DNA of 64,000 bases from Raillietiella orientalis (Eukaryota), in the NCBI GenBank assembly GCA_036172245.1, contig JAYWIR010000042.1, positions 1,674,001 through 1,738,000 of the forward strand. Reading direction: 5' to 3'. Position 1 is the first letter of the stretch; every line of letters starts with the position of its first letter. Shown here piece after piece: positions 5,363 to 61,699 of the stretch. A model generated the notes under the pieces. The model worked only from the letters and a program-made list of their open reading frames with translations, was not told the DNA's origin and made no database searches. Both the position numbers and the translations under genes were made by a program.

Positions 5363-6206
5363 ACAGTTACGTCCTAGGTTTTGTTTTTATCTGGTCATTT
5401 ACCAACCTACTCCAATGATAAAACGACGAAGATCGGTTCATAATTATCTGCTCATGCATTTTCTGACCCTATTTCACGAAATTTGAATACTCCGAAGATG
5501 CAGCCAAATCCGTTATACGTTTTTCATTAGCGCATTAAAATTAGTGTCATTAAAATCAAAAGGAAAGTTTCGTATGTGATGTATTGTTTTGTATTTCACT
5601 TCAGCCCTGCCAAGAAACTGCAGGTTGTTTAGCTTGCACAGAGCAGATCCTGGGTTACACCTTTTCAGAAATATGTGATGCTCAAGGGTGTTTTTTCCGT
5701 TCCAAGCATTCCCCGAGTGTAGGGTGTTCAAACTCGTTACTTCGTGATTCCATTAAGAGCTGCCTTCCTGTACGATTGATACAGGAAACGTGAATTCAAA
5801 TTTTGGCTTATTCCTCTTCATTTCATTTGCCCAGTAATTTTGGGTTCTGTCTTGAATGTTAGATCTTATTAAACTTACCTTCGGACTTGCACTGCTTTGT
5901 GTGCGCCATCATGTACATAAGAATTTATGGAATGCACTCTTGTACTTGAGGTTGAGGATAATGTAGTTTGGTTTTTGTTTGGGTACACAATTGAGTATGG
6001 TAATTTGTTTAAGCATTGTCTTTTTCGTTTTAGGCAAGTGTTTGGCGAAAAAAAAAAAAAAGTACTCAGGCGTCTACAGCTAGAACTTCCACATTTCGTT
6101 TGATGAAACCCAAGATTCACGTAGAATTTTTCTTAATTTTCACAAATACGTGCGCTTTAAACGATAAATCCATTGTGAATAACAAATAAGTTGGAATTCA
6201 GTACAA

Positions 6207-7311
6207 ATGCAAGGAGACTCCCCCTCTTCATATGTGGATTTGAAAGTTGTTCTACTGGGAGAAGGATGTGTAGGAAAAACATCTGTTATGAGGAGATTTG
6301 TGGAAGATAAATTTCATGATAAGCAACAATCAACTATACAAGTAATCAATGATTCAGATTAATTAATTAATTAATTCGCTTAGCTGTGACAAATTGAAAT
6401 TCTATTTTTCTCATGAAATGTGCCAAAAATTGGAGGAATACATGTTGTCATTGTTTTCCCATCTTCAAAGCCAGGCATTTTAGTTATTATGAATTTGATT
6501 CATGTGTATTTTATTTGAATACATGCTGTTAAATATTCGGGTATTAACATATCTAGGCCAAGGCCTTGCTTTCTAAATTGAATTGTCAGGAATTTTTTTT
6601 CATGACTTATTGCATTCAAAATAATCTGAATATTAGATAAATTAGTTTTTTATTAGGCATCTTTCTTATGTAAGAAAATAAATTTGGGTGACAAAAAACT
6701 TAATCTAATGATTTGGGATACTGCAGGCCAAGAAAGATTCCATGCTTTGGCACCTATATATTATCGTGACTCCCATGGAGCAATAATAGTTTTCGATGTC
6801 ACTGATGATAACTCATATTTGAAGGTGAGCTCAAAGTTGTTAATTTCCTGAAAGACATTAATTGCATGTGCCATTTTAATATGTTGTTTGCTAGTATTCT
6901 CTAAGGCACCAGTAAAATAATTTAATACATTTCTAGATGAAATGTTGGGTAAAAGAATTGCACAAGATGTTAGGCAATGATGTCATTTTATGTATAGCAG
7001 GAAATAAAAAAGACTTAGAAAAATACAGAACTGTTGATACTAATGATGCCATCAAGTAAGAAAAACGAAAATATGGTCTTGGATAAATCTCTTTACTTAG
7101 CTATGCAACTTCAGTGGGTGCAAGTTATCATGAAACCTCTGCCAAAGAATTCATAGGAATCAGGGAACTTTTTTCTGACCTTATTACAAAGTTGATTGAA
7201 AAACATAAATTGTGTGATAGAGAAGAAAAAACTGCCAATAATTCAAAAAGCCTGCGCATAATTCCAGATGAGAAATTTGAATCAAATATCAAACTAAAAT
7301 GCTGCAGATAA
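6207..7311 (+). CDS. Rab21: Rab21 small GTPase, 4 exons: join(6207..6341,6657..6824,6937..7055,7101..7311), 210 aa
   Basis: The spliced translation contains KVVLLGEGCVGKTS (G1), STIQ|ASF, IWDTAGQERFHALAPIYYRDS (G3), CIAGNKKD (G4), ETSAK (G5) and a C-terminal CCR prenylation motif. All introns are GT-AG, phases are consistent and the CDS is 633 nt. GEGCVGKTS and QASF are typical of Rab21. Confidence 0.95.
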
Positions 7312-8447
7312 ATCATGATAGCTACAATCATGAGTAATTGTGATGACAAATGTGGAATGAATTTAAGAGCAAGTACTGCCTTGAAGTAAATTCAAAGTAA
7401 ACACATACAGAAGTAATCTTGACTTGGAATTCAAACATATTTAAAATACACTTGAATTCATTATAGCCAGATTTCTTTCATAGTTTGTAGTGGAAAATAG
7501 AAACCAATAAGATTTTGAAGTACTTGGAATTGTAAATCCTTGTCTTGCATTGTACCCTGATTTCTAGGTGCCATGCATCCATTCTCTTATCTTATGTGAA
7601 ATAATAGTGACAGGTGTTTTTATCTGTTTCTTTACAGTTGGGAACTATAATGTTGCATTCATTGAAAAAATCACATTAGGTAATTTTCAAATCTTCAAGA
7701 TACTGTGTACCTTAGGGTTTTGAGAAAGTCTATATATATATTGATATCATGTTGCTTTTTCAAAGCTTTTCTTTACAACCAATACGTCAAAATCCGATCG
7801 AATTTTCCTTGATTTGTACGTATTTTGGGGGCATAATTTAATTTACCAATGAAATGAAAACCCACAGATGACTGTGAAACAACGGTTTAAATCATACTTT
7901 TAGTTGCTGTAACATAAACGAATGTTATTTGTGACACAATACTACCTCTAGGATATTCCTAATCAGTATACTAACAAATATGTTATATTGTCCCAAGCAT
8001 TAATTTGCGTGGTGTGTAGCCCTTGAATTGTACCACCCTGTAATGTTCATGGCACGTTATTCCCACGCTCCAATATCGTACAATAGCAGAATTTCGACGT
8101 AAAATCACATCAGTAAGATCACAAGTTTCAGTACAATGGCAATTCATCGTCGATCCTGTTTCATTGTAACACTACAGCTATGAAGATGATTTTCTGATCT
8201 GTTTACATTCATGTTTTCAGGAAATTTCATTTTCACTCCTTTCGTGATTACTGCTCAAGGCACTCTTGTGGAAGGTTCATATAATCAAATTTGGCATTTC
8301 CGTTGACGATTTTCCTCTTGAGGCCGACATGGTGTGCTCCACTGAATCTCGAGCCCTAATCAAATCTTGGCAATGTGGTGCATTTTTTGCTTTTTGACAG
8401 TCTTCTGCAAGCTTTCTGGGGAAGATGTCTGTTCCATGCATTAGCTA

Positions 8448-39400: not shown

Positions 39401-42400
39401 ACGCGAGGCCGGAAGCTGCCTCGGACCCCTTCTCTAATGCGTAACATCCAGCAGAAGCGAGGAAGGAAGAGGGAGATCTGGATCTCATACTCCTGTACGA
39501 GCTCGCCTGGCTCGTTTTCGTCGCCAGGTAACCGGAAAGGCATCACAGGTAAACATTCTAAATTTTTCGGGATACAGCCCCGTCGTCTTTCCTTCACTTC
39601 GCCCGTGCTTCAAGCATTCCAGGCGCCGACAAAAGTGGGGAGTCCCGTTTGTGAGTGTTGGATTGGTGGGCACCGATTAGCTAGTGGGGACGAAGATCTA
39701 TAAATAGACAAGGTGCAGCCGGTAGAGGGAACGCATGTGCGTTGCAACAGAAGGGACAGGCGCGCTTGCTTGCTGTCGATCGCCCGGAAGTCATTGCCCA
39801 GGGAGGTGTACCGCCCCCTCGCGACCACTGGCGCGGAAGCGAAGGGCGACGCTTGCGAGGTGCTCGTGGAGGGGTTTCCAGGGGGTTGACGGTCAGGCGC
39901 GAGAGAGACGAACCCTGTGGGCAGTAGCAACCGTCCTGTTTCTTGCGGGGTCGCTCGATGCACGGGCGAGGGGCGGAAGAAGAAGCACCTGTTTCCAGGA
40001 AGCCGCGTTCCCTCCCCCCCCCCTTCCCCGTTTTCAGAAAACAGCTGGAGAGAGGGGTGCGATCTCCAAATACACCGCCCAGGAAACATCCCCAAGCGGG
40101 GGCTGAGCCGACGGGTTCAGAGAGCCACTGTTGTCGCCCCCTCCGCCCCCTTCCCCCGTCACACACATACACACACGAAGATGCGAAGAGGAACCCGGAA
40201 GTGGCCTCTCTCGACGGTTCCCTATCCGGGAAGCTCCCTCCTGGGGAGATCCGGAAAGCAGGGTGTCCCTCGACGTCCTCTTGGTCTTCACGCTCGCGTG
40301 CGTCCTCGAGTGCGAGACGGCGAGGGCACAGCCCGCGCGTCCTCCTCCCCAGTGAGCGCTTCCGGGACAAGTGCGCTTAACCAGTGAGCGCCGCAGGCGG
40401 CCTTTGAGATGAGGTCCTTTGCAACCGGCCCAAAGGAAGGAAGGCACTTCGGCTGGAGACGTGAGAGGCAGCAGCACGGTTGCAAGGGTGACGAGGTGGG
40501 ACGAGAGCAGAAAGCTTCTCCAGGCGGAGGGAATGGGCGGGGCGATGGTCACCTGAGCGCCGTAGTATCGGGCGGGGCACCCTCGGAGGGCGTTTCTCCC
40601 TCCTTCCTCTTCCCGGAGACGTTCCGCTGGAGCGTGCATCGCCGCACCGGGAAGGACGGGAAGCCGAAGCGTTTGTGGAACCGGCGCCTCCCGGGCGGGG
40701 TCGAAAACACGAGTAACAGAGATAGTAGGGTGACTGAGGAGTCTTCCCGTTCGGGGATCCTTTCGGGGAATACGGCCGGCCGACTTCCCGCGGTTGCTCT
40801 CTGCGGGGGGAACGAAACCGACGTTTGCAGGCTTCGGGAGAGCCGAGGAAAGTGGGTTGGGAGCGTGGAGGGATCGGTTCGCATCTTCTCCAGGCGGATC
40901 AAGCGGGTCGGAATCTCCCCCACAGCTTCCCCAGGTGGTGCGAGAAGAGGGCGCGAGAGCCACCTCACGAGGGATCTTCCTCCTGTTGCCGCAGCGCCTC
41001 TTCCGTTCCCTCCGTTCCCTCCCTGCTCTCGAAGCACCGCGCCCGTGGACTCCCCCCGGGTGTCACGAGGCGAAGCAAGGTGGAAGAAAACGACAGAGGG
41101 GCTCGCACGTCGCCATGTCAACGGTGATGGCACGGGGGGACGTCCCTCTTCCTCTTCCACTTCCCGCAACTCCCCTCGAGCGGCGTGCGGTCCACTCCCC
41201 GGATCTGGAGGAAAAGGCGTGGGGGAAAAGGAACCGACGGGGAAAGGCAGCCCCGCCCACCTGCAGGAGAGACCCCGGTTCCCGGAGGGTTTCCAGGAGG
41301 GCAAAAAAAGGGAAGGGGAGGAAGGGAAAAAGACTCACACGAAGCTCTCGCACGTGCAAACAGCCGCGCGCTCTCCGGAGCGCCTCGCGCATCCAGGGAG
41401 CCGCCTAACTGACCTTCCCTCCGGCGGTAATCCCACCAGGCCCTCAGAAATTCCCGCGCGCGGCGGCGGCAAAGCGGGGCGGTCCCTTTCGTTCCTGCAG
41501 TGGCGCACCCGCCGGGCTGCTCAATGATCCTCTCCTCGGGAACAGGACCAGCGTGCGGTCCTACCGTACTGGACGCCCTCTCTGGAGGTCCCGGCGAGAT
41601 GAGGTGGGGAGAGGAAGGGGTCTCTTCGCGGTTTCCGGAGATCACAGAGAAGAGAAGCGGGGAAAGAGGAGAGGGCAGGGAAGGACGGACTGGAATCCCC
41701 CGCGCGGAACGGGGATCTCCTAGGAGACCCCGGCCGGGAAGAGAGCAGCTCCCGAAAAATCTGCCGAGGATAAACACGATTTGTAGGGTACGTTCCCCCA
41801 GCAGTAGAGAATCGCAAGCACCCTTCGGAGAGTGGAGCACCCCTCTTCCCGTGAGGGCTTTCCCGTGTCGCCTCGCCCTGAGCAACCGCCTGCTCCCGCC
41901 TTCACGGATCGCACGAGAGAGATCGCTTCGGTCTTCAAGGCGACAGCAGAGCTTCCTTCTTCCCGTGCGTGCGCCTTTCCTAACGACGGAAAGGAACGGA
42001 AGAGGGAACGACTCCCCTCTTGGAATAGAATACCAGGAGAGAGATGAAAGAGAAAGAGGCTCCAGGAAGTAGCAGCACCCCACCGCAAGCTCCTCTCTCC
42101 ATCCTTCCTTTTCCCCTTCTCCCGTAATGTAGCCAGCTGCCCGCCACCGAGTGAGGGGACCAGGGGTTCATCGCGTCATCCAGAATCGAGAGGAGACAAG
42201 CGATGACGGCGGCGGTTCGGCGAGAGGAAAGGGAAGAGGGGAGGATTGGGGAGGAAGAGGAGGAGAAGGGAAGAAAACGCCAGCAAGGAATGGACGGCGA
42301 CGGGAGCAGCTCGGTTCTCGTAGACCGCCATCAACACCCAGGGAGTCGTCCCCCTCTACTTCCCTCCTTCCGACCAACAACCCTTGTTCCTCGGATCACG

Positions 42401-45400
42401 CGTGACGAAGCAGGGCGGGCCGCCGGAGGTGCCTCGGGAATACCTCCAGGGAAGGAAAGGGAAACTTCACAACTTCAAAGGGGAGAAGGGGAGTTCCCAA
42501 ACGCTCGCCGGCGACCGGAAGCTACGCCTGATTAAGCTGCCCGGGGCAACTCCCTCTCACTTCCGCCATCAGTCAGGCGCGCGGCGGGCCCGCAGAGCAC
42601 TTTCGTGGACCCCCTCTCCTTCCCCCTACTCCCTTGCATCCTGCAGACTCTGGCTACAGGCGCGCCCGCTTCCGTCCCGAAGGAGTAGCAGGAGTGGCGG
42701 ATACTTCCGCCTGGTGCTGCCGCTCCCGTCCTCAGTTCTCCCCATGCCTTTCCTGTCCCTGCCCCATCCGAATAGGGCGCATGGGGCGGGTTTCCCCCAG
42801 AAAAGTCCCGAGACAGGGCGTTCTGCCTGGGTTGTCGACGCGCCCACATCCCCCTCCGCGTCTCTCTCGGGAACGAGCGTGTTCCTTGCGCTTCAAACGG
42901 TCTCCACGACGACTGCGCAGTGGGATCGGATGGGATGATGACCAAAGCAGTTCTTCTCCTACCCTCCTCTCATCCCCTCTCCCCGCAAGCTACGAGGAAC
43001 GCCCCTCCGTGAAGCGCGCGGCTCACTCCTTGGATCGGGAGGAGAGGGAGTGGCGAAAAGGAACGATGGTGATGGGCAGCTCCACCCGCATATGAGACCC
43101 GGTCCCCGGGAGAAGGTACCTCCTCATAATTGGCGGTTTCTGGGAAGGTGAAGGGGTAAAGAGGGGGCGGAAAAGCATCCCAGACCTCCCTCCAGCTTCC
43201 CTCGAAACGTTCATCAAAGAGTTCATCAATTTCGAGAACGAAGGGATCCAAAGCAGAAGATGAAAGGGACCACCCCTTCCTGCGACCGGAGAGGACCGAG
43301 CCGCTCGGCGGTGGAGTTTTGGACGGAGGAAGGACCCGGAGTCAGGATGCCACTCCTCTGGGGAAGGAGGCAGGAGCGCTTCCCGACAGGGGGGTGAGTC
43401 GGCGGCGTGCGCGCGTCCCATGCGCGACCCCGGAGAAGGGTCAACGAGAGGATGATACGGTCCCGGCGAGCCCTCGCCACCGAAAGAAAGAACGCGCCTT
43501 GCCCCGGGATCCCGACTACGGATCGCGGTCATGCTGGATGAGGAGTTGCAGGCCGGGAGAAGACGCAAGGGCAGCGCTTCGTCGGGCAGACCCTGTTCTC
43601 TCCCCTCCCCTCACGGGACTCACGGGCGTCGCCGTGGCCAGCAGCCACGGCTCCCTCAGGCAGAGATATCTCCCCTCTCTCTCATGGGACGCGCGCACGC
43701 GTTCCCGGTCGGTCGGCGGCAGTTGCGTTCTGGATACCTCCCTCCCCGGATCCCGGTGGCGCTTCCTCCCGCCAGCGTCAAGAAGCAACGGAAACCGGCG
43801 GCTCCGTGGGGAGGGCGGAGGCCTGGGGAGCTCCACAGGGGCGGGTCCTCCGCTCGAGCGAAGGGAAGGAAAGGGTGACTGGGGAGCCGTGACGGAAAGG
43901 GACTCACCTGGAGAGCCCTGGGGTGGGGATGGGGGACTTCGGCTTCGAAGGAGAGGGAGCAAAGCGCCCTCACCACCTCGGCTAGAAAACGGAGGGGGAG
44001 GGAAGCTGGAGAGGGCATGGAAAGGGAAACAGGAAGCTAGGGGAGATGGGCGAAGTGAAGGACCGCTCGTCTTTTTGGGAAAGGAGGAAATTAGGGCGAA
44101 AGGGAGAGGGAGGAAATCGCCTGTTCTCAGGGGGGCTGCGGAGCCGGAAAGGAAGCGGAGGCGTGGGCGAGAGGAAAGGAAGGAAAGGGGGGGGGGAGAG
44201 GAGGGAAGGCGCTCACACGAGGGGAGGATGCAGTGAGGACTGCGTGATCCTGGGGGAAAAGGCGAACGTGGGAGGAGCAAGGACAGGGAGGAGTTTTCCT
44301 CCCTGGATTGCGGTAGCGAACCCAAGGGAGAGTTCCCGTTATCCTCTCCGCTCTTTCGCTAGCGAGGAGGGAGAACGTCGTTCCCGAAGGGTGCGACACG
44401 CCTCGACGGCGGAACTCCTTCCTGCCAAAGTCCTTCTTCGCCCGTTCTTCCTGCCGGAGGGGCGTCACGACGTGCGATTTCCCTCCCAGGGTTGCGAGCA
44501 GAACCCAGGTCTCCTGGAACACGAGGGGGATGCACCACCTCTCCCTCATCCCGTGCTCCTCCTCCGGGTAGAGGAGCGGAGAACCCTCGTGCCAACAGGG
44601 AACGCTCGTGGGCGAGCGAGGGATGGGAAACGCTCCCTTGCTCGCGGCAGCGGCTGAACGGCCACCGGAAACGCTCGAAGGTGGGGGCGGGCGGAAGAGG
44701 AGGGCACTTCCCTCTAGGATGAGGGTGCGAGGGTGCCTCTGCGTTCCCGACTGCTTCTCCTCCTCCGGTTCTTAGGACTCGAGGAGCCAACGCTCCGCAG
44801 GGGAGGACGGGGAAGACTCGAAGGGCAGAGCGCGGTCCGCTGGGAGAGGTGCACCCTGCTTTCTCCCCCGTCACGCCCCTCTCCTCCCGTGCCCTGGTCC
44901 TGGAGGCGACGAGGGAAAGCGGAGGACGGCCCACCCAGAGCGTACCTGAAGTTAGAGCAAGGATGGATGATCCAGTGGCCGGCGGCCTTCTGCCTGATCC
45001 TCTCCTTCATGACGGCCTTCTTGGACCCGAAGAGCTTCATAGCCAGCTTGTTGTCGGTGGGCTGGAAGAGGGCCAGGATCTGGTTGCGGAAGAAGCCCTG
45101 CTTCCCGTAGTCCGGATCTTCCTCCCCGCAGGCCTGAACCGCAACGCTGCCGGCGAAGGGGACGGGGACAAACTCTTCCTTGGGGGTGCCGTACAGGCTG
45201 TCCTCCGTGGCCACCCTCCCGACGGCGTCCTCCCCCGCAGCATTGGAGCCTGCGGAGGGAATCGGGGCCGCGGCCGCAGCCGCCGCCGATGCTGCTGCTG
45301 CTGCGGCGGCCGCCGCCGCCGCGGCGAGGTCGTCCATGGCGGTCACCAGGGAATCGCTGCAGGCCCGCACCGTGAAGGACGGGTCCCCCTTGAGGTCGCT

Positions 45401-45604
45401 GCTGGCACTCCTGCGCGCCGACCTGCGCAGGGACTGCGTCCGCGGGATGACCTCCTCGATAAGGACCGTGGCGCCGGTGGCGCCGTTCGGCAGGCCAAGA
45501 CTCAGGTTCCGCTGCAGTTTGCCGAGCTTGGGGCGTCTCAGGGGTGGAGGAAGGGTGCCGATGACGCCGGGAGGTTCACCCTCCCTGGACAGACCTCGAC
45601 GCAT
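11486..45604 (-). CDS. Ih: Hyperpolarization-activated cyclic nucleotide-gated channel (HCN/Ih), 10 coding exons: complement(join(11486..11828,11882..12158,19001..19118,19201..19347,20742..20960,30696..30845,33899..34039,34127..34263,39002..39165,44946..45604)), about 784 aa
   Basis: Exons join in frame (2355 nt) with GT-AG introns. Motifs include the HCN domain ([15 protein letters not shown]...[13 protein letters not shown]), S4 ([23 protein letters not shown]), pore (SHMLCIGYG), C-linker ([18 protein letters not shown]) and CNBD ([10 protein letters not shown]...RRVASVRA). Very similar to insect/crustacean Ih as recalled. The start codon is uncertain because the frame stays open to an acceptor at 45668. 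Confidence 0.95.
11882..12158 (-). CDS. Ih: Ih exon 9 (cyclic-nucleotide-binding domain)
   Basis: [93 protein letters not shown]; acceptor cttcag, donor gtgagt. Confidence 0.95.
13852..13906. repeat. Compound trinucleotide microsatellite (CAG)n(CAA)n(CGA)n
   Basis: Directly visible in the sequence. Confidence 0.95.
16210..16560 (-). mobile_element. Highly decayed LINE reverse-transcriptase remnant
   Basis: Broken motifs PVFPK...[19 protein letters not shown] and VIKGVRRGS occur in RT order; many stops. Confidence 0.25.
17028..17090. repeat. Interrupted (TA)n microsatellite
   Basis: Directly visible in the sequence. Confidence 0.9.
18772..18802. repeat. (CTG)n microsatellite
   Basis: Directly visible, about 10 units. 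Confidence 0.9.
19001..19118 (-). CDS. Ih: Ih exon 8 (C-linker end, CNBD start)
   Basis: Manual translation [39 protein letters not shown]; acceptor ttttag, donor gtgagc. Confidence 0.94.
19201..19347 (-). CDS. Ih: Ih exon 7 (C-linker)
   Basis: [49 protein letters not shown]; acceptor tcgcag, donor gtaaga. Confidence 0.94.
20742..20960 (-). CDS. Ih: Ih exon 6 (pore, S6)
   Basis: [73 protein letters not shown]; acceptor ttttag, donor gtagtg. Confidence 0.95.
23100..25050 (-). mobile_element. Decayed L1/Tx1-like ORF2 (RT region) within Ih intron 5
   Basis: Ordered degenerate motifs LGKSPARQG (cf. GKSPGPDG), STIQGK...VPRPLRLG (cf. INGxxxxxFxVxRGVRQG) and FLWLPRRR; frameshifted. Confidence 0.4.
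25070..26270 (+). mobile_element. Decayed LINE endonuclease/RT fragment
   Basis: [11 protein letters not shown] (cf. APE FT...SRID), KSALIPV and PDWRRIGL...MFKV (cf. LIPK...NWRPISL...K). Confidence 0.3.
28860..29440 (+). mobile_element. Decayed LINE RT fragment
   Basis: [13 protein letters not shown] (cf. GIRQGxPLSPxLF) followed by degenerate YADD-like and LGI-like segments. Confidence 0.4.
30409..30438. repeat. (TC)n microsatellite
   Basis: Directly visible in the sequence. Confidence 0.9.
30696..30845 (-). CDS. Ih: Ih exon 5 (S5)
   Basis: [50 protein letters not shown]; acceptor tttcag, donor gtacgg. Confidence 0.93.
33899..34039 (-). CDS. Ih: Ih exon 4 (S4 voltage sensor)
   Basis: [47 protein letters not shown]; acceptor cctcag, donor gtaagc. 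Confidence 0.93.
34127..34263 (-). CDS. Ih: Ih exon 3 (S2-S3 linker, S3)
   Basis: [46 protein letters not shown]; acceptor ttccag, donor gtaagg. Confidence 0.93.
35100..36186 (+). mobile_element. L1/Tx1-like LINE 3' fragment (same family as 1590-3250) in Ih intron 2, with intact 3' terminus
   Basis: [22 protein letters not shown] and [26 protein letters not shown] (zf-RVT); T-rich UTR; AATAAA plus stem-loop at 36161..36186. Confidence 0.75.
39002..39165 (-). CDS. Ih: Ih exon 2 (S1-S2)
   Basis: [54 protein letters not shown]; acceptor tccag, donor gtacgt. Confidence 0.93.
42400..44300 (-). mobile_element. Possible very decayed GC-rich LINE ORF2 remnant in Ih intron 1
   Basis: Only fragmentary RT-like segments (e.g. 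ERGDISA*GSR, cf. KKGD...NWRP); boundaries are approximate. Confidence 0.2.
44946..45604 (-). CDS. Ih: Ih exon 1 (N-terminus, poly-Ala tract, HCN domain)
   Basis: Encodes [11 protein letters not shown]...[41 protein letters not shown]. Donor GTACG at 44945; pyrimidine-rich acceptor (ccttttcctcag) just upstream of 45668. Confidence 0.9.
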
Positions 45605-48603
45605 CGCTTCTTCTCGAGACTTCCTCCGCGGCGCGGGGGCGACCCCCGAGAAGCTTCGAGGTTTCGCACTGAGGAAAAGGGGGGGAAGGGGAAAAGGAAG
45701 TTCCTAAGGAGAGCTCATCCTTTTAGGGTGGAGGGGTAGGGGGAAATGCACCCAGTGAGCCTCCCCGGGTCTTCTCTTTATCGACTGGCCCGCAGCGAAC
45801 AGGAGGTTCCCGGAATAGGAATAGGAGGGGGGAACGAGGAAGAGTGGTGGTGGGAGGAAATGGAGGACTCTCTCTCTCTGGAGGCGGCGCAAGGCGGGAA
45901 GGGGAGGGAGTGCGGCACCGAAATCGTCTCGGATGGGTAGCGACAGAGAACGAGAGGGGCAGGAGAAAAAGGGGAAGGGGGGAAAGAAAAAAAAAAAAAA
46001 GGGGAGGGGGGGAGATCGCGGGAGACACAGCAGACGGGCAGCTTCCACCTCCTGGGAACGGGGAACGTCGAAGGAGCACTGGCGGACCACAGCGAGCGGG
46101 AAGCCAGACAGCGTCTCGGCGGACGCGCCTGCGTCGCCTACGGGACACTCCCGCAAAGGCGCGCCTGCGCGCCCCTCTGTCCTTCTATCCCTTCCTCCGC
46201 AGGGATTCGCCGAGTCGATCCTCCGTCTCGTGGAGGGGAGGAGGAGGTGGAAGGGTTCGAGCGAAATGAGAGATGAAGGAGGACCATCCCACTCTTAACT
46301 GGCCCCTGCTTCCCGCGAAAGGGACGGACCCCGTAGTGACCGAAGCTGCGGTCTCCTACCGCCAAGGGACGAAGAGGGGGGAAGGGAGAGAGAGAGAAGG
46401 TGCACATCGCTCCCTCATAGTCTTTCCTCCCACCCTGACCGACCGACTCGAAAAACCGTCCCTCCCTCCCTTCCACCCGCCCCTGGAAGGTGCGGGGAGA
46501 ATCTGGCTGCTGAAGGCGTGAGGAACAGGAGTTCCCCGCCTGCAGCAGATGGCCGTCGAAGTAAGCACATACGTGGAGGAAGCATTTTTTTTTTTTCGAA
46601 AACGTGGTTTCCTGGAAGTAACGCGAGAAGATGTGCCTTCGGTTGCTGTGGCTTCAGCTGAACCTCGAAAAGGGGTGTGTGTCTTGTCGGCGGGTCAGAG
46701 AAATGCACCCGGAGCGGAAAGAGAGACCACCCCAAACGCCCCTTCCGGTGCCTGGCGGTGGCAGCACCCATCTTCAGTTGCCCTGTGCGTGCGTGCGGGA
46801 CGGTCTTGGCGTGCTGCGGAGTCGCGACGGGCGAACGTCCAGCCGAGCCGCCGTCTCCCGAGAGATACAGACGAAGCGCGGATCCGACAGTCGGACCTCC
46901 GACTCGGCGGTCCGGCGGACGAGACGTCCTCAAGCAGGATGGCATGCAAGCCAAATGAATGGGCACACACACTTCTCTCCCGGAGGAACGAGTCCGAGCT
47001 GAATTTTCCTGTCTGGATCCGGAAGGAAGGTCTGGACACGAGAAGCACGGAGGGGGAGGGGAAACGCACACACAGAAAGTCGGGAAGAGTGCATCCTCCG
47101 GGGCTGCGCATTGAAATTCGTGGACCAGCTTCCGACGCGGAAACAAGAAAAGATTGCGTCACCGGGAAGGCGTCCGTTGCGTGCTTCCGCCCCCCTCTCC
47201 CACTTCCCTCCCGTCGTGCACCTGGTGGCGGGCGGAGCGATGGTGCGCGCATGAGGGTGGAACGACCGCTGAGCGATGCTCCCCGAAGGCCAACTGGGGC
47301 CGGGAAGCAAGAGGGTGGCATGCGTGGCGCAGCAGCGGCGCTGACCCAAGAGCCCCAGTTACTCCATGAAAGTCGGCGGATGTCCCCAGGGTGTGGCGCC
47401 TGCGAAAAACGCCGAAAAACGGCGCGCTTCCATCTACCTCCCTCTTGCTTCTCCTCGAGATGGAACTCCCATTCGAACACTCTCCGCGCTGCTGCTGGTG
47501 GTGGTGCCAATTTTTTCTCCTACCTCGTCTCCTCTTCCACGAAAACGAGTTCTCTCTCCCCTTTCTTTCCTTCCTCTCTTCCTTCCTCCGAGAAAGTCGG
47601 GAGCACTCGGGAGCCAGACAAAGGTCCCCCGAAGTTTCGGCATGATCTCCATCCTTCGCGGGATGCCGTGGATCGAAGCAGCCGCGTCAACCGGAACTTC
47701 GGCCTGGAGGAACTTTGGAGGGGTTTTACTCCCCCTCCGCAGTCCTCAACTCCACGGTGCCTCCAGGATGCTGATCAGGTATCCTGAAAAGGGAAAGGTA
47801 GGATCCCGCCTCCGCTCTTCTCGCGTACGCGTGCGCACGAGGGAGCCGATGCGATCGCACGATGATGCTGAGCGTACCGTGAATCCTGCCTCCTTGCCGG
47901 CAAAGAGTGCCCTGAGGCAGCCACCGGATTCTCTGCTCAGGATTGCATGAGCGCTCCTCGGTGCCTCGTCGCTACGCGTGAGCCACCCTGCTTGGTCCGG
48001 CGGTCCACAGTCGCTGACAAGCGGCCAAGTGCATGGTCAGACGTGTTTTCCCGGAAGGAGGAACGTCCACTGGATCGTGCTGTCTTCGTGAACGTCGGTC
48101 TGGCTCATCTTCGGAACGGGAAGCATCCAAGAAACGGTAAGAGTATCTCGTTCTTCAAAGGGCGTGGCGGGGAAGAGCTGGCTTTGGGCTACCCCTGTTA
48201 CTTCAAGCGAAAGGCGGGAGGATGCGGGAGAAGGTTCAAGGCGTCGAACGGAAGCGTCCGTTTTCGGTTTCCTAGAAACAGGAGTCCTCTCCCGACTTAC
48301 CCTTGACTCCGCCTTCAGAAAGCAATAGCTCGAATTGCCGATCTCGTGGGTAGCGGCCGTGCGGTTCCAAGGAGACCGCTTTCCTACCGCGCATTCCCAC
48401 CATTGAGGTTCTTGGGGGATCCATTCTCCCGGTTCCCAAGCATCGATTCATCTCCTCCCCTGCCGACGGGAAGGCATTGGGAGTCAGGAGGGCGAGGCGG
48501 GAGAGAAAGCGAAGGAGGAGGAGGAAGAGCAGAACGCACCAGGAGAAGAAGGAAACAAGAAACCGGGAAGGGTGGGATGGAGACATCTCCCGCCTACACG
48601 GGA

Positions 48604-48644
48604 GAAGCGTCGATCCTCGCGCCTGGACACTGCCGGCCTCAGAA
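48604..48644. repeat. Inverted repeat, left arm (pairs with 50038..50078)
   Basis: 35-bp perfect match (48610..48644 vs 50038..50072), extending to 41 bp with one mismatch. Confidence 0.9.
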
Positions 48645-49729
48645 ACCACATCCACGCTTCCTCCTCCCCTTCCCTTCCTCCTCCCCTTCCCTTCCTCCTC
48701 CCCTTCCTTCCTTCCTCTTCCTCTTTATCATCATCATCATCTCGCCCATCATATCGCCCATCTCGCCCCATTTTCTTCCTTCCCAGCTCCATGAGCTCCC
48801 CGTCTCCACTCTCTCTAGTCGAATGGATGGAGCTGGTCCACGGGGTTACGAGGTGGAGTGTACGGGAGTTCCCAGAACGTCCTTCTCTCCCCATGGTGTG
48901 AGGGTCCTCTTCCTCTTCCGCCTTCCTTCGTTCCATGTCCAGGAGGATCCAGCGAGCTTCGCACGGAGGAAGCGCTCGGAGAAAAGAGGGAGGGGAGCCT
49001 GAGGCGATGGACTGTGCTGAGTAGAGGACGCTCCCAGCTTCCGCGCTGCTTTCCCACCCTAGTTTGGTTCCCCAGACTCCGAGATCCCCATTCCTCCACT
49101 CACCTTTCTTCCTCCGCTTAGCCTCCTCCTCACGGGACTTCAGCCTACCCCAGAGGCACCCCCTTAACCTAGCTACGCGTCCTCCCGATTCCTACTTTCC
49201 TTTCTGTCTTCTCTAGAGCCTCCGTCCCCCCGCTTACCCCAACCCCACCCGTCTCGTCATTTCGACTCCCTCCTCCTCCCGCCAACCCTAAACTTCCACC
49301 TTCCCGTGCTCCTTCCAGAAACCCACCCACACCTCTGCATCGCTCGATCGTAGGGCCCATCCGATTCCCTATCTCACCCTCCCTTTCCCACGTCCTTGTT
49401 GCGCCGTGTCGCCGTTCCATCTGCCGAAGCTTTCGCCTTTCCGGGAGCTCCAGGAGGATCTGCAAGACCAGCTCAGGGCGAGAAGATTCGGAAGGGAGAG
49501 GGGAGGGGAATGCAACCCCTGGCGATCTTCCTGCCTGGAACTGAGAAGACAAGAGTTTCGGTCCTTCGGCTGCGCGCGATCTACCGCCACGACGACTCCG
49601 GCTTGCGGAATTCATCAAGGAAGAGGGAGGTCCGCAGGAATCATCTCGGCTCATTCGGAGGTGGTCACCCAATGCCAGTCGGTCAGTGGGGAGTCGCACT
49701 GCGCTCGAGTCGACGGGCTTCGGGAAGAT

Positions 49730-49810
49730 AACGGAAGCTACAAGTGAGTGTATCGGCTTTATTGTGGCTACAACTTTTAAATTGGATGAATAGGCATTAT
49801 TATAGTATAG
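49730..49810 (-). other. znuA: Bacterial (Wolbachia/Rickettsiales-like) znuA 5' fragment inserted in host DNA
   Basis: Translates LYYNNAYSSNLKVVATIKPIHSLVASV: end of a signal peptide plus the V(V/A)(A/T)(S/T)IKPxHSLV motif at the start of mature ZnuA. About 35% GC (28/80) against about 60% in the flanks. Confidence 0.7.
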
Positions 49811-50037
49811 TGCAGAGGAGGCACCACTGGGAGGCGAGCGAATGAGTGGAAGGGATGTCCCCGGCTTCCTTCGTCTCAAGGGCGTCGGAGTGAGGACTGC
49901 TGACTCCTCTTTCCCACTCGATCTCTATCCCCATCCCTTCACCGGCATCGTCTCTTCCGCCCGCCGCTGAAGTATCTCCTCGTTTTTGATTGGCTGCTCC
50001 TTCCGTAAATCTAGGATCGACCTCTACCAGTAGGTGA

Positions 50038-50078
50038 TTCTGAGGCCGGCAGTGTCCAGGCGCGAGGATCGAGGCTTC
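50038..50078. repeat. Inverted repeat, right arm (pairs with 48604..48644)
   Basis: ttctgaggccggcagtgtccaggcgcgaggatcgaggcttc is the reverse complement of the left arm. Confidence 0.9.
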
Positions 50079-53000
50079 CCCTCCCATCCCTTCTGGTTCC
50101 TCCTCCTCTCCCGCTTTCTATCCCTCCATCCCGACTTTCTCTGCCTTCCCGTCGTCAGGGGAGGAGAGGAAGCGATGCTTGGAAACTGGAGGCAGGAATT
50201 CCTTGCTGGCGGGAAAGGCGCACCAGTCCGACCCTACGCTCCCGCCTCAGCAGGTGCGCCGCGGGCGCCTCCAGAATAACTGGACATTTATTTCGGGAGG
50301 CTATCTCGGTTCTCCAGAGTAGCTGCCACGCTTCCTCTGCCATCCCCTCTCCCGGATTCACAATGCGTGCCGAAAATCCGCTGCTTGGGAGCACCGCCAC
50401 GCCGCCGTCCCTTTTTCCCCTAGCAGCAGCGACCCGAACCCGCCAGTCCCGGTCGGTGTCGGGCTCGGCGAGGTGAAACCGCGACTAGCGGGGAACTTTC
50501 TCCTGCAGGTCACCCAGCAGTTCGCGAAGGGAGCGACTCCCCTAGAGGTGCGTCAGAGGTTCGCTGCCGTGCGTGCGCGCGCATTCCCAAAGGGGAACGA
50601 TTCCCTCCTCCCCCTTGCTTGTGCCGCGCCGGTCTACCTTTCGCTCTCGCTCCGGGAGGCTGGAGCGTACGTGAGCAAGGGACCAAACGGTCTACGGGCG
50701 CCGGTCTGGCGGGCGACTCCAGGCGCGCAGACGGGAGGGACTCGTCGTCGAACCAAGAACGACCAAGTCGATTCCTGCCCATTGCATTCCTGCTCCTCTC
50801 CCCCTCCCCCTTTTTTTTCCTTTATTGGAGTTTCCACACTTCCGATCCTGGGGTTTGGCTCCTCAACACCCTGATTTGCCCGTGGACAACGGCGTCATAG
50901 ATGGCACCTGGAGGGTGTCGGTTCGCGCTTTCCCGGAAAATGGGGTGGATCCTCTCGTTGCCCTTCCTCCTCATGGAGAGGGAGCTCCTTGCAGTCGCTC
51001 CTCGGTGGTCTCTCTCCACGCCATGGAGTCGGGATCAGGGGCAGCAAGCTCTCGCACCCCCCATCTCCGCCGGGATTTACCTCGTTCGGATGAAAAATTC
51101 ATCCCGTCTTTGCCAGCACCACACCAACCGTGCACCTCGTGACCTTCTCCCCCACCTCCCTCCCGGAATGAAGCGGGGCGCGCGGCCTGAATCCCTATCA
51201 GGGACCTTGCAGCCCCGAAGGGAGATAGGGAACGAAGGGGCAGGCATCAGCAGATGCGGCGGGAAGAAAAGGATCCCCGGGGTGGACTCGAGCGAGGAGA
51301 AACGAGAGCGCGGAATCTGTGCTCGTGGACCGCGCACGAGGCAACCCCCTAGGCCGAAGGATGCAGTGGGCCCAGAAGGCATGGCAGTGGAGCCAGGGAT
51401 CGCCACTCTCCCTCACTCCACTCTGCTCCGTGCGATTCTCCACGTGCGCTCCTCCCCTCCCTCCCGCGCCTTCGGGAAGGCGGTGTCGGGAGGGGGATGT
51501 TCGACGCAGCTTCCGGAGGCATCCGGGAGAGGAGCGTTCCTGCGGTTTTCCTCCTCCTCTTTCAAGGCATAAGAATGGTAACCCTGGCAGCGGCAGAAGC
51601 TAAGAAGCTTCCGGGAATCCTCGCTTTCGGTTCGATGAAGCTGCGATCCGTCACAGTATCTCGCTGAGCTGCTTTGCACCTGACCCCGACTTCCGCATCA
51701 TCATCATCGCCATCGTTATCGTGACATGGTGTGTTTTACTGCCTCTTTCACCGCCTCTTCCGAGGTTACGACAACCTCACCACTTTTCCTCCGATCTTCA
51801 TCTTCACCACCACCGCCGCCGCGGCCAATATCCTCGTCCTCATCGTCGCCATCATTGTCTCCTTCACTTTCGTCATTGTCTCGATCAGCATCATCACCCA
51901 CTCCACTGTTTTCTTGTTGCTGTCTGTCATGGTTGCCATCGTCCACTCCTCCAGAAAGGAACGGCATCGAGCTTCCTTAGATGGCGTGGTTCGTCATGGC
52001 GGGAGAGCGACGAGGGAAGCGAGGGATTGTAGGATGGCTGGTTTCCCTTTCGAGTACCTGACTGAGGCGGCGGACGACAGGAGTGTGAAGGACGCCTCCA
52101 TCTTGCGTCACGGGCCGGGACGCAACGCTCTCCTACGTTTCCTGTGGCTTTCCTTCGCCTGCCCGTGCTGTTGTCAGGCGCACTTGGTCGGGCGACCCGC
52201 CTGAAGTTTCCGCCAGGTGGCTCCAGTGCCGGTCGCGCGGACAGAACGGAGGAAACGAGGGAGGACGAAGTGGAACGGACGAGGTCCGACGTGGGGAGAG
52301 AAGGGACCTCGGGCGTGACGTTGGACGGAGGGAAGTGACGATCGGGAAAGAGGGTGGTTTCCAGGAAGATGTCGAGGGAGGGAAGGAAGGTGAAAGGACA
52401 CGGGCTGGGGACCAACGGCGGGGTGAAAGTTTGCCGCCAGAGGGTGATGTCTTCGTTCTCAAGCTAGCAGGAAAAAAACACGGCAGCGGAGTGGGGAGGG
52501 AGGGAACAGGGGAGATGCCAAGGAAACGCAGAATGACGAAGGGAGGCTTAAGAGGAGCGTAGGTGGGGTCGTGAGGAAGCCGCCGCTGCCAAGACGACGA
52601 TGATGGTTACTCCACCTGAAACGTTCAGTGCTCTCCTTCGATCGCTTCCACTCGCAGTCGCGTCAGCGCGAGATGATCATTTCATGTTTTCTGCTTTTTT
52701 TTTTCTTTTTTCCCACGTTCGCGTGACGACCTCCGAAGCTTCTCTTCTTTCTCCCCCTCCCCAAGAGTTCCGAGTCCCTCCCTAGAGCGCCTACTTCTGC
52801 TGATCGATCTGAAGAAGAACCTGAGCATTCCTAGATGCTGGAAGGAGGAGCAGAGTTTGTCGAAAATGGGATCCTCGCGAACCAAACCTAGCCAGAGTGT
52901 AGGATCCAAAGGCGGCGGCGGCATGCCTCCTGTGTTTTCGTTCGAAAACAGGGATGATTCCCCTTCCCCCCTTCCGTCACGGACCTTTCCAGCATCGCCT

Positions 53001-54392
53001 CCTTTCAAACTTTGCATACCCTCCCTTCCACACCCTTGCGAGACTGCTGATGCACACTCGGACCTTCTTATTCTTGAACATGCGGAGGGTAACAGAAACT
53101 TCTCCTCCTTGTTTTTTCTTATCTCTCGGGAAGAATCTTGACCTCCCTCATTTGTGATCCGGCCATCTGGCGCTCTGGAGAGAAGCGACAATTTCGAGGA
53201 CGGAGCGAACGGATGCTGCTGCAGCGACTGCAGGTCTTCCCGCTCAGCGACCTCGCCGAGGACGAATTCTTTCTCGGACGATCTTCCTCGAGTACCCACC
53301 CTCCTGTCCACCGTATCAGGAGATCGGCTCGCATCGAGGCTCTTCTTCTCCAGGACGGCTGGCATCCCTCTGAACGCAGCCGAGCTCTCGGCAACCAGTC
53401 AGGTTGCTGATGCTCTTCGTAATTCCGAGACTCTCCCTATCTGCGGAGCTCACGCTCCTGTGTGGAGCTGTGGTTCTCTACAGGAGAGAGAGGGGGGGGG
53501 GAAGAGCGTGCTGGCGATGAAGATGCGATCACTGGGCATGGAAGAGGGCCAAAAAAGTACTGACGAGGCAAAGAGTCGACATGAACCTGCTCAGCCCACC
53601 TGTCTTCACTCACACGTTGGGGCCCCCTGTGCCGACAAAGAGAGACTTTGCCGAAATGCTCCTCATCTTTGACTGTACACTTTTACTCCAAACCACTAGT
53701 CCCAGTTGGATGCTTTCTTCATCGAAGCTCATGCAAGCTACTGGCACCTCGTCCCTCTGATTTCCTTACTCTACAGATCAGTTCCCTTCCCAAGCACTCC
53801 TTGTTTACCCCTACACCTCGGCGCAGTCACCCGAGACCGCAGGGTAACCCTCGTAGAGTTTCCCCTCTTCTCCCACTCGGTTTCCTCGAGACAGACAGTT
53901 GAACGCATGTGAATGAGTAAATCTGTTCGCCGTCTTCACCAGGAGGAGGCTTTTTCCTGCAAAAAGGAAGAAGAAAATCCCTTCTGGAACTTGGTAACGC
54001 TGCAAGACCCTCATCCATGAACCAACAACCAGAAACCAGGTTAAATACGCAAGGTAACAGGCAAACATCGACGGTGCACTCTGTGTCCTGCGTACTTGGG
54101 GAGGAAAGGGACAAGTGAGGGTTCCGAGTTTCCGATCCTCCAGGAGGAACTCTCAAACAAGAACCACAGCAATTCTTGTGCGCTCTCGCCGCCTTGCTTT
54201 CGCGCGGAGCAACAGGGAATCGAAAACAAGTGCTGAGGATAATCTTCCCCTACACCAAGGATGGAGTGTTCCCGCAGGCGGCATTCGCTCCCGAGTCTGC
54301 AACCTGGACCTTGGTGATGAAGGCGGGAGCTGCAGGGACAGATGCGACAGACCAGCAGAGTTGTTCCACACCACGGCCCGTTCCGGCAAGAA

Positions 54393-54399
<7 letters not shown>

Positions 54400-54428
<29 letters not shown>

Positions 54429-54504
54429 GACGCTGTAGGGGCAATAGCCCTACACTTGCTTGTTTGTTTTTACTAAAAAATAAACGCCCCGGCGCACCCG
54501 GGTG
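54400..54504 (+). mobile_element. Isolated 3' terminus of the same LINE family
   Basis: A poly-T/T-rich tract is followed by aataaacgccccggcgcacccgggtg, which differs by one base from the reverse complement of 2545..2570. Confidence 0.6.
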
Positions 54505-56342
54505 TAAAAGCAGAGTTGTTGACAAACGAACGGACTGAATGCCAGGATGAAAGCCGCCTTCGGCCAGATGGCCAGGTCCACCAGGCTTTTCAAAATGCAC
54601 AACCATTTTGAAGTAACAAGCAGCAGTCGAGCTGGTTGATCCCAGCTTTCCTGATCATTTAGACAGACAAGACAGACAGACCTTGCCTCGTATGCCAGAC
54701 GAGCTAGGAGGACGGGTGAGTCCTCCGCCCTCCTTCGAATCCGGTCCAAATGCCAGATGGCCGTCAGAAGCAGGCGTACGACGGAAGTGACAGTGCTGCC
54801 TTTTGTTTTGTTTTATTTTCTTTTTGCCCACTTTTTTTCCTGGCTGTGTTGCCTCTCTTTGGCTAGCTTTGCTCCAAACGCTCCTGGGGTTTCGGGATGC
54901 AAAGGATTGATAGATGACCTCAGGTCACTCGAATCTTCCCCGGTGCGCCCAGTGCAGATGGAGGTTTTCTCGAGGAGCGCATCCTCGGAGGGATGCTATG
55001 CCTGTGAAGATGAAGTGCGAGGCCCGCTCTCTCTTTTCAAGCATCGAGTCTGCAAGCTTGTGGCCCCGTCCGTAACCAACGGTGCTCGTGCGCCTGAACG
55101 GAGGCCGCGGGCTCATCCGTGGAAGCTCCGCCAACAAACCGAGCCCGCCGTAGCTTGCGTTGCCTGGTTACGAACGGTCGCACGAGGGGGGGGGGAGCAG
55201 GCCCCCCCCAAAAGCATGCGAGAGTCTGTCCGCCAGCTATTAAGGAACGCCCTCCCCCACCCCCCCTCGCTGACAGCCCAAGCACCGACCAAGATGTCAA
55301 GCTCGATGTCCTTCCCACTAGCAGACTACCCTGTAGTAAGTCCCCTTTCCCTCTCCCCGCATCAGTGCTTCCTTTTCCTCTCCGAAGACCGCCTTGAGCG
55401 GTCGAGCACGAGATACCTCTGCATAATAGTGAGCAAGCACGACAGATACGGAAAGCGAGCTCCCTGACTCTTCGTGAACCTGAGAAAGAACAAGTGGGGA
55501 GCTTCCCGTGCCGCCGCTCGTCTCTGCGACGTTTTTGTTCCTTCCTGTGTTTCCGCTGCACACTCTGAACGAATGCCAAACGATGAGCGGCTTGGGAATT
55601 CGCAGAACGCGGGATGTCTTGTTTCTCTCCTGGATCTACCATTCTGGCCAACCGGTAAAGGCAGCTATCAGCTGCCCTTCTCCTCCGCAAAATCCTCCAG
55701 ATGGATGGCATCATTAGATTAGGTAACAAGCGGAAGAGGAAAAAGAGGAAGGAAGAGGAGAGAACAGCAAGAAGGAACGGAAACGTTAAATCCAAAAATG
55801 AAAAGGGGAGCAAAGGAAAAAGAAATTTCTTCTGTTCCTTTTTTTTCTTCTTCGCATCCAGAGCGAGACGTAGAAAACAATCCCGCGAGATGCGGACGAA
55901 TCGTAAAAGTCCACAGGAGCAAATCAGCACACACGGACAGAAAAAATGGTTGTAGGCGAATTATCGCGAGGCAGCAGCGTCCAGGCTGACTGCGCAACCA
56001 GAACCGAGATCGATTGACCTGTGTCCAGTTTGAAGGGCGAAATTGCGGGGTAAATTCGTTAGTGTGCGAACCCACAGGAAAACAATCATCAACCAAAAAT
56101 GAAAGAGGAAAAAGAAAAAAGAAAAAAAAAAAAAAAAAAAAATGGCCTTTACTCGTGCAAGTGAAAGTGTACATTGGACGGGCAGAACAGAAGACAAGTG
56201 CACGGCTTCCTGCAGCGACGCAGCACAAAGGCGTTTCGACCCTTGGAATGCTGCCGCCTGACTTCCGGGGAAGATGGGAAAGGAGTGGATTTCCCAACAA
56301 AGCCGCCGGACCATCCGGGAGGGTGGTCCAGTGAGCGTGGGA

Positions 56343-59300: not shown

Positions 59301-60392
59301 TCGCAAATGAGGAACGAAGGACACTCGAGGCAACCAAGCAAAGGAACACGAAAGCCGTTAAAACGTTTCGCCTTAATTGCGAGTCTGGGAAACGCCATCC
59401 CGGTGCGGAGTCATGCAACCGGTAAACGAATGGAGCAGGCAGATGTGGCGCAGAAATCCGTTTCGGTTAACCTCGAATCCCCTTTTCGCGGTGAGCAGCC
59501 TGCGGTCGGTGTGCACACCGCACAGACACACGCCGAAACGGACCAGCCGAAGAGAAGACCACCAAGTGAAGCAGTCGGAAGCGGAGTACGGCGAGCGGAG
59601 TCTTATCGGAGAGGGAGCTGGAGGGCAAAAACACAAGGATTACTTTGGAATTAGCCGGCTTCATCTGAAATACGAGTTTCTCTGGACCTGCAAGAAGATT
59701 CCAACGACTCCCAGCAAAGTGGTAATCATGGCAAAGCAGAGACACGCAGTGATACAGGTGCTCTTCTACATCGGCTTGCTTTATGGGTAACCCGTCGATG
59801 TATTTGCTGGTTTGGGGACTGGGAAACAAATTAATCCCAGAGGAGCGCAAAATCTGAAAGCATAACATCACCATCAAAGCACCACCAGTTCAGAAGCCGT
59901 TTGCTTCCTTTTCTTTTTTAGATTCTAATTAAAGTGTGTTTGGAACTTGGAACCAATTTCGAATCATCCGGATACCTCGATCTGTTTGGCAGGAGAATCG
60001 TATCTTCCACATATGTGCTCGAGTACATTCTTCGATTCGGACTGTATCTTCGATATGCACGTCTCTTTGTCCTGAAATCAGGCATAAAGGGTTAGACCTG
60101 CGTTAGACCCAATCACACTTTGATCCTGAATTCCACAATCAGGGATGTGGTGGTGACGATGTAAAGGCCTTCCGATGCGCTTGATGTGACCAGCTCCCAA
60201 GACTGGAAGGGAAAGTTCGAGAACAACCTCTGAGCAAAACTGATGGCTCCGAAATGCTCGCTTCTGAATGTAATCTCCATGCTGTCTTCTTGGCATGCTA
60301 CCTCGTGAAAGCAATTCGTGAGCCACTTCTTGTTGCCGTGGTCCCACATGACCGGAATGGGAGGTTCCAGCCAGAGAACGGCATTGGACAGC
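56343..60392 (-). CDS. CASC1: CASC1/DNAI7 (Las1; dynein axonemal intermediate chain 7) homolog, 3' part: complement(join(56343..56507,56561..56662,59644..59853,59976..60071,60119..60392)); 5' exons not identified
   Basis: Five exons join in frame with GT-AG introns: LSNAVLWLEPPIPVMWD...NFPFQSWEL...IVEFRIK|DKETCISKIQ...|ILRSSGINLFP...FAGSRWN...|GSFSLMLVTP...|YAADL...MFTRPLSYS*. Matches the recalled Casc1 C-terminal pattern (PYQSWEL, GLNIFP, SKWN, terminal TRLLSYS). Confidence 0.88.
58500..59100 (+). mobile_element. Decayed RLE/R2-like reverse-transcriptase fragment in a CASC1 intron
   Basis: QKRGL...EGCTE (cf. QRGF...GCxE), HLARLPSNTLHDEI...LRFG (cf. DLxKAFxxxxHxxI...FG) and PPNKSQT occur in RT order. 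Confidence 0.4.
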
Positions 60393-61699
60393 CTACGGAA
60401 ACGAAATGACCTAATGAGAACACGGTTTCCCGATGGAGCAGCAACTCCAACGGGAATTCACCGTTGAGAAAAGAATCTTGTGAAGCACAAAAATCCTGTC
60501 AAGCATTTCCACGTGACCAACGGCGGCCCAACGATAAGACACCGCATGATCATGCGAGGGAGAAACCGCCCACGCAGTTTTGATGAGGATGCACGCGTCC
60601 ACGGGGTTTTTAAATGCACGCAAGTTTTCAGCGAGAGAATCGGCGCGCATTTTTGCTACGGATTTTTCCTGCTCTCAGATGATAAAAGCCACACAGAAGC
60701 AAGGCTGGAAAATGAGGAGGTCTGCATGCGTGAAATTTCTCTTCGCCAGCCGGGCCAAGTTATCGCGCGTTTGCACAGCATCGAAAGCTGCATTTGCGCC
60801 ATGTCGCTCGCATGTCCATGGGTCAGAAGGCTTCGGGAGATGTGAAAATGCACGAAACTTGGCAAACCCGGAGGAGCAAAAATTTCACGCTTCGTCCTTC
60901 CTCATTTTGCAATCTCACCGATTCACTTGAGGTTTTGATTGAGGTTCGTACCCGTTCCAGTCTGTGGATTCAGGACGAAGCAGCATTGCTATGGTTCCGG
61001 CCACACACCAGTTTTTTTCGAACGAGAATCCCATGATCTTGGTTTCCCCTGATTCCCAGCTTAGCATCCTCATTCAAAGCCCTAATTTCGCCGATTAATG
61101 CTACTCTCCCTGTCTTCTTCCGTGTTCTTGTGGGTTTCAATCGTACGGGTTTCAAAAAGACGTTCAGAGGGCACAAATCTGACCGAAGCTTCAATATTCA
61201 GTTTTGACACGAGATTTCAGAACTCGACAAAAAATAGGGGCTGAACCTTTATTTCAAAGATAAAACCAGCTGAATCTGTGCTATATTTCAAAAAAGGAAG
61301 AGCATCCTCTCACACCGAGTCGGGCAACTTCAGGAGAGATCAAGGACGTCACAGGAGAGAGATCTCTTTCCGATAAATTAAAGAATACTTACGAATGCTT
61401 CGAGAACGAATCTGAGATTTCACATTTTCCAGCTTCCTTGGCTGATCCTTTCCGCCGATTGCCCTCGGTTCTTTCGCACAGGGGTTGCGAATGTTGTTAA
61501 ACCGTTCACAGAAAAGAGCGCTTTCTGAGAACATCAGGAGAGGACGACGAAGACTGAGCACACAAACACATTCTATGCTTGCATGCCGAAATGGAAGAGT
61601 GGTGCATGCTGACTCGCAATGCGTCCACGGAATTTCACCACTCGCTCCCATCTTTGCGCCAATCAGAATGAAAAACACCACTCCAAAATAAATAAATAA

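Follow-up and report, generated by a model that had tools for sequence, protein, structure and literature searches.

An 84-nt Wolbachia znuA fragment, probably integrated, upstream of an arthropod Ih channel gene

A short minus-strand patch of 84 nt, at positions 49729-49812 of the stretch of arthropod DNA analysed here (64,000 nt in all, hereafter the window), was recognised as a fragment of the Wolbachia gene znuA, a derivation confirmed by sequence comparison at both the DNA and the protein level. As assembled, the patch is flanked on both sides by host sequence in one N-free molecule, with the exons of an Ih channel gene at 11.5-45.4 kb and Casc1_C-like sequence at 59.5-60.5 kb, and its putative integration in the host chromosome is likely. 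In 49729-49812 we see, with good probability, a genuine micro nuclear Wolbachia transfer (NUWT) that was joined in at the repair of a chromosomal break and has no function.

Homology of the patch to Wolbachia znuA

The GC content of the patch is 34.5%, whereas the adjoining 500 nt have 60.8% on one side and 59.6% on the other, and 57 of the 15,916 84-nt segments of the region 40001-56000 are as AT-rich as the patch. One of the six reading frames is open, namely the znuA frame, and the minus-strand translation of 49729-49812 is LYYNNAYSSNLKVVATIKPIHSLVASV. A preliminary description of this DNA had reported a patch of about 35% GC in DNA of about 60% GC, translating without stops and spanning 49730-49810. 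The composition and the stop-free translation were both recovered, the open frame being that of znuA alone; the location stands as well, with a homology that reaches slightly further on either side. The 84 nt occur in a single copy in the 64-kb window, 0 copies being expected by chance.

At the DNA level, all 7 Wolbachia znuA loci taken from species-representative genomes aligned to the patch without gaps, with 72 to 76 identical nucleotides out of 84. Among the GTDB species representatives, identity amounts to 86-93% within the patch and drops abruptly in both flanks, where the 20 nt outside each edge agree with the 7 loci at chance level (1 to 5 of 20). These are the sharp ends of homology that had been predicted for both edges. 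Within the genus Wolbachia, 56 of 60 genomes matched the patch, the best of them at 78 of 84 positions, and E-values per genome ranged from 2e-30 to 3e-16 in 54 of the 60. The match reached both ends of 49729-49812 in 46 of the 56 matching genomes, fell 2 to 16 nt short in 8 and overran by 1 to 8 nt in the remaining 2. The 8-nt overrun, found in genome G034, was rejected as a chance run in CT-rich DNA.

In an order-level sample of Rickettsiales, 20 of the 400 scored genomes matched the patch (one further genome was not scored). All 20 belong to the Wolbachia-genus set, and no match was obtained with the non-Wolbachia genomes of the 400. This restriction to Wolbachia within the order sample implies that the donor was Wolbachia specifically and not the Rickettsiales generally. 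The patch had been called Wolbachia/Rickettsiales-like; the Wolbachia part of this label is retained and the wider part is dropped.

Five Wolbachia genomes, complete or draft, were compared with the entire 64-kb window, which was divided into four pieces for the search. The segment 49729-49812 was the sole significant match in the window and was found with each of the 5 genomes, at E-values of 3e-25 to 2e-21. For the remainder of the window, the next best hits to the five whole genomes had E-values of 0.009 to 0.04, which is chance level. The patch is thus isolated: the sequence on either side of it does not derive from Wolbachia by decay, and no larger insert is present in the window.

At the protein level, a 41-residue in-frame query was searched against 5.8 billion proteins and 53 candidates were scored. 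Six of them matched, with a best E-value of 9.8e-7, and all six carry the ZnuA family PF01297, the best being of Wolbachia type. The top match, P0002, is a 177-residue fragment named 'zinc transport system substrate-binding protein' by its JGI source; it is identical to the patch at 25 of 26 residues (96%), or at 26 of 27 with the Leu just before it, added by visual inspection. The second match, P0003, identical at 26 of 30 residues (87%), is a cluster of 196 sequences bearing the NCBI name of zinc ABC transporter substrate-binding protein of a Wolbachia endosymbiont. The stretch SSNLKVVATIKPIHSLVASV is present unchanged in P0003, in agreement with the Wolbachia ZnuA motif given in the preliminary description. 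With six out of six protein matches being ZnuA and 56 of 60 Wolbachia-genus genomes matching, the origin from a znuA of Wolbachia type that had been proposed is fully supported.

The matching region runs from the last part of the signal peptide into the beginning of mature ZnuA, 28 codons corresponding approximately to residues 14-41 of a 293-residue protein. Compared with Wolbachia ZnuA (PF01297), its source gene, the patch has the nucleotide and amino acid identities given above, and unlike this gene it has no start codon, no metal-binding domain and no score with Pfam. The full periplasmic solute-binding domain described by the PF01297 model is absent from the patch, in which the N-terminal 28 of about 293 codons are represented. 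Judged from its sequence, the patch is a gene fragment and not a functional member of the ZnuA family, and it is predicted to have no function of its own. Neither the 27-residue peptide nor the 236-residue open reading frame (ORF) that contains it hit any Pfam or NCBIfam family at E-values up to 10, and a phmmer search of the PDB with the same two queries gave 0 matches. These empty searches say nothing against the homology and were expected for the peptide, 27 residues being too short for such tools.

A lineage close to the donor was found in public sequencing data. Three runs from three studies, one of them labelled as a termite gut metagenome, carry about 4% of the words sampled. Contigs of 216, 1757 and 1085 nt from these runs span 49729-49809 only, at 79 of 81 identical positions with 2 letters differing, and beyond the patch they continue in both directions into sequence unlike the window. 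Visual reading of the contig ends in the frame of znuA gave ...LFFLLLSLT-L upstream and T-DGILKPDFL downstream, which are the residues flanking the segment in P0002. The contigs of the three runs are therefore genuine bacterial znuA and, at 79 of 81 positions, testify that a lineage close to the donor exists. Once 3 edge bases are counted by eye, the window copy and this lineage agree at about 81 of 84 positions, that is, they are about 3.6% apart. Two metagenome scans, one with a degenerate pattern specific to the lineage and one with P0002 as query, returned no match.

At 2 positions the window copy differs from all 12 species-representative Wolbachia genomes compared. One difference is non-synonymous, TAT standing for TTT and hence Tyr for Phe, at a residue where P0002 has His; the other is synonymous, CCG standing for CCT or CCC. 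Truncation to 28 of about 293 codons, these 2 differences and the 79 of 81 identical positions with the closest contigs set the patch apart from the live bacterial gene, as is expected of a NUWT.

Genomic surroundings and the open frame through the patch

The nearest recognisable host gene encodes an Ih/HCN channel on the same strand as the patch. Its first recognisable coding exon, at 44942-45373 on the minus strand, was located by tblastn with arthropod HCN proteins and contains Ion_trans_N (PF08412, 86 bits for a cutoff of 27). The exon at 39221-39000, recovered by the same search, is followed on the minus strand by exons at 34267-33896, 30914-30696, 20960-20739, 19350-19201, 19118-18993, 12162-11881 and 11830-11564. 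The patch lies approximately 4.0-4.4 kb upstream of the first recognisable exon, 44942-45373. Conserved Ih exons are 93-97% identical to those of many insects and 75-94% identical to the compared tick, crab, copepod and millipede proteins, so by sequence the Ih exons of the host arthropod are hexapod-like. The top Ixodes match to Ih was set aside as an artefact of a duplicated N-terminus in the Ixodes record. The exon beginning at 34267, when taken as 34267-33872, aligns to other arthropod HCN proteins with about 30 residues in excess (95-101 query residues are spread over alignments of 120-131), a surplus due either to an insertion specific to the lineage or to a small intron that escaped recognition.

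Upstream of Ih, two minus-strand ORFs at 59470-59889 and 60116-60457 resemble Casc1_C (PF12366), with scores of 24-25 bits (24.1 and 24.7 for the two ORFs) that are below the cutoff of 26.2. They are probably 3' exons of a Casc1/DNAI7-like gene. Among the 98 ORFs of at least 100 residues that reach beyond 45.3 kb, the Ih exon alone passes a Pfam cutoff. On this gene layout, the patch is predicted to be intergenic between the Casc1-like and Ih/HCN genes, or to lie between them in an unrecognised 5' UTR or intron. A search of Rfam over 48000-51000 found nothing at the patch and yielded 4 sub-threshold matches, all within a low-complexity tract at 48467-48786.

Two other features of the window were recorded. 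A block at 6001-8000, within the Ih region, is also AT-rich (31% GC), and no ORF of at least 110 residues is present between about 4.9 and 8.6 kb. As this block has no match to the five Wolbachia genomes, it is not a second transfer. The translation of the minus-strand ORF 1685-2125 presumably resembles the cysteine-rich C-terminal part of the reverse transcriptase of a non-LTR retrotransposon (...CAECGERETFPHLLIDC...).

The patch had been described as embedded in frame in a 236-codon chimeric ORF at 49169-49879, with the remark that this might be due to chance; the embedding is real and the remark proved well founded. From stop to stop, the open frame through the patch extends over 251 residues at 49172-49924 on the minus strand, of which 49169-49879 is the version of the ORF list, with 236 residues and a TTG start. 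In the region 40001-52000, 12 ORFs of at least 236 residues, measured from stop to stop, overlap one another on both strands, while mononucleotide shuffles of the region give a mean of 0.6. Moreover, neither the 251-residue nor the 236-residue version has any Pfam or NCBIfam family. Since long ORFs are the local norm (12 in 12 kb) and no family match accompanies this one, we judged the 236-codon chimeric ORF to be a product of chance and not a gene. The patch would simply retain its native open frame and be in phase, by chance, with flanks that are themselves open, stop-poor and GC-rich.

The region 40001-52000 as a whole is a GC-rich (58-64%), stop-poor block around and upstream of the first Ih exon. 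Its ORFs contain no Pfam family other than that of the Ih exon, and the block constitutes a trap for ORF-based annotation.

Mechanism of entry and rival explanations

Short insertions of organelle DNA in the nucleus, known as NUMTs and NUPTs, are captured as filler at double-strand-break repair, and the capture of filler by end joining at breaks is the accepted route for short mitochondrial and plastid insertions. For filler DNA in plants, PMC6544945 cites Gorbunova and Levy 1997. By a comparable route, DNA from Wolbachia lysed in a germ-line cell would have reached the nucleus, where end joining would have sealed a double-strand break in a chromosome with a short piece of znuA; capture as filler was also the mechanism that the preliminary description held probable. 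In PMC11532726, non-homologous end joining is named for bacterial and viral integrations and is stated to be an alternative route for the integration of bacterial DNA. The filler-DNA model cited in PMC6544945 parallels the capture proposed here for the znuA fragment.

The patch has the features of filler DNA: the insert is short, its borders are sharp, and neither terminal repeats nor a target-site duplication were seen. A search of 46500-53000 for direct repeat families was negative. Where the patch ends, as far as the junctions are visible, the adjoining host bases have nothing in common with the continuation of the donor, an arrangement that fits blunt end joining without being diagnostic of it. 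We also considered an inversion breakpoint at the patch and rejected it, the purine/pyrimidine profile having no clean switch at the patch edges.

The main rival to a true NUWT is an assembly artefact, in which a Wolbachia read or k-mer path, originating from a live infection or from contamination, was written into the host contig at gap closing, local reassembly or polishing. Among the public sequencing runs in the index, none contains the host flanks, none carries more than 4% of the sampled words and no RNA run is among the matches; the junctions rest on the assembly. With its 84 nt, the patch is also of the size of a read. In addition, the small distance to the lineage of the three runs (about 3.6%, or 3 of 84 nt) and the mere 2 positions at which the patch departs from every one of the 12 genomes compared would equally suit a contaminant read from a live infection. 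On the other hand, the window is free of N over 64 kb and across many low-complexity tracts, which mildly favours a long-read assembly, where a foreign internal insert of 84 nt is unlikely. Host DNA continues for kilobases on both sides of the patch, and the rest of the window has no likeness to Wolbachia. Short NUWTs are, furthermore, common in real genomes according to PMC12693587. Weighing these points, we hold an artefact to be unlikely, while granting it a real share of the probability.

A less probable alternative, to which we give little credit, is that the fragment entered the genome elsewhere, either as cargo of a repeated host element, such as a foldback or Helitron-like transposon, that picked up Wolbachia DNA and has since spread, or as the last remnant of a larger and older NUWT that was mostly deleted. 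The one observation on this DNA in its favour concerns an inverted repeat that brackets the patch. The left arm, at 48416-48644 on the plus strand, is 78-95% complementary, with indels, to the right arm at 50038-50202 on the minus strand, whose inner edge is 225 nt from the patch. The arms measure approximately 165-230 nt, are about 1.4 kb apart and have no second pair of their kind in the 64-kb window. They could be two copies of a dispersed host repeat or a foldback structure, and are given here as context of the patch. Helitrons are, in addition, reported in PMC6544945 to capture short foreign pieces via the filler-DNA route. However, the patch is single and the arms are represented by one pair in the window, and among the ORFs of at least 100 residues that overlap 48-51 kb no transposase or other Pfam family scored above its curated cutoff. 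As for the remnant of a larger NUWT, the flanks have no residual similarity to any part of the 5 Wolbachia genomes.

It is hardly credible that the patch or the ORF through it is functional, be it as the ZnuA-derived part of a host protein or as an AT-rich element recruited for regulation in the region preceding Ih. In favour of this reading are the znuA frame, which has stayed open and in phase with the 251-residue open stretch, and the position of the patch some 4 kb upstream of Ih. Against it, the ORF belongs to no Pfam or NCBIfam family, comparable overlapping ORFs are the rule on both strands here, Rfam has no match at the patch, and the segment, made up of the end of a signal peptide and the first strand of mature ZnuA, is not a domain.

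Comparison with known insertions and meaning

In kind, the patch is a NUWT, and its size (84 nt) and isolation are the only features that stand out. Like NUMTs and NUPTs, it is a short piece of foreign DNA that comes from an intracellular resident, has sharp borders and ends without transposon hallmarks; it differs from them in having a bacterial and not an organellar donor, and in that its origin by break repair is inferred. With the NUWTs of arthropods and filarial nematodes (PMC3849323, PMC12693587, PMC4299567) it shares the condition of a truncated, non-functional Wolbachia gene fragment within host sequence, close to living Wolbachia. Unlike those NUWTs, it is very small, isolated in 64 kb and known here from the assembly.

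Filarial nematodes contain hundreds of short NUWTs per genome, according to PMC12693587. In a survey of B. malayi, the section 'Detection of nuwts' of PMC3849323 defines nuwts only above 100 bp. Pieces like the 84-nt patch consequently fall under common thresholds.

A stepwise acquisition of filler DNA during repair, in pieces of less than 100 bp, is described for Helitrons and other transposons in PMC6544945. The patch resembles such captures in being shorter than 100 bp; it also lies between the arms of an inverted repeat. It differs from them in that no Helitron or transposase feature was found, and the repeat pair, single in the window, is not demonstrably mobile. A search of the open-access literature for 'Wolbachia' together with 'filler DNA' returned this Helitron paper only and no such case, which is not proof that the phenomenon is unpublished.

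As a speculative extension, which we put forward as doubtful, endosymbiont pieces of less than 100 bp may be a pervasive and largely uncounted break-repair filler in Wolbachia-bearing arthropods, missed by standard NUWT screens whose cutoffs are lengths near 100 bp or hits to protein HMMs; the present host would then carry many such micro-NUWTs, and their nearest donor lineage, here that of the three unrelated public runs, would record a present or past infection.

Micro-insertions of this kind can give false 'Wolbachia-positive' calls in PCR, k-mer and metagenomic screens, and can lead annotation to false 'chimeric' ORFs. On the present evidence, the patch has no bearing on the function of the Ih channel. 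If it is truly integrated, it would demonstrate the capture of endosymbiont DNA in fragments far smaller than the usual size thresholds of screens for lateral gene transfer (LGT), and it would be a small genomic fossil of an infection, present or past, of this arthropod lineage by a Wolbachia similar to one that still circulates, as found in the three public runs.
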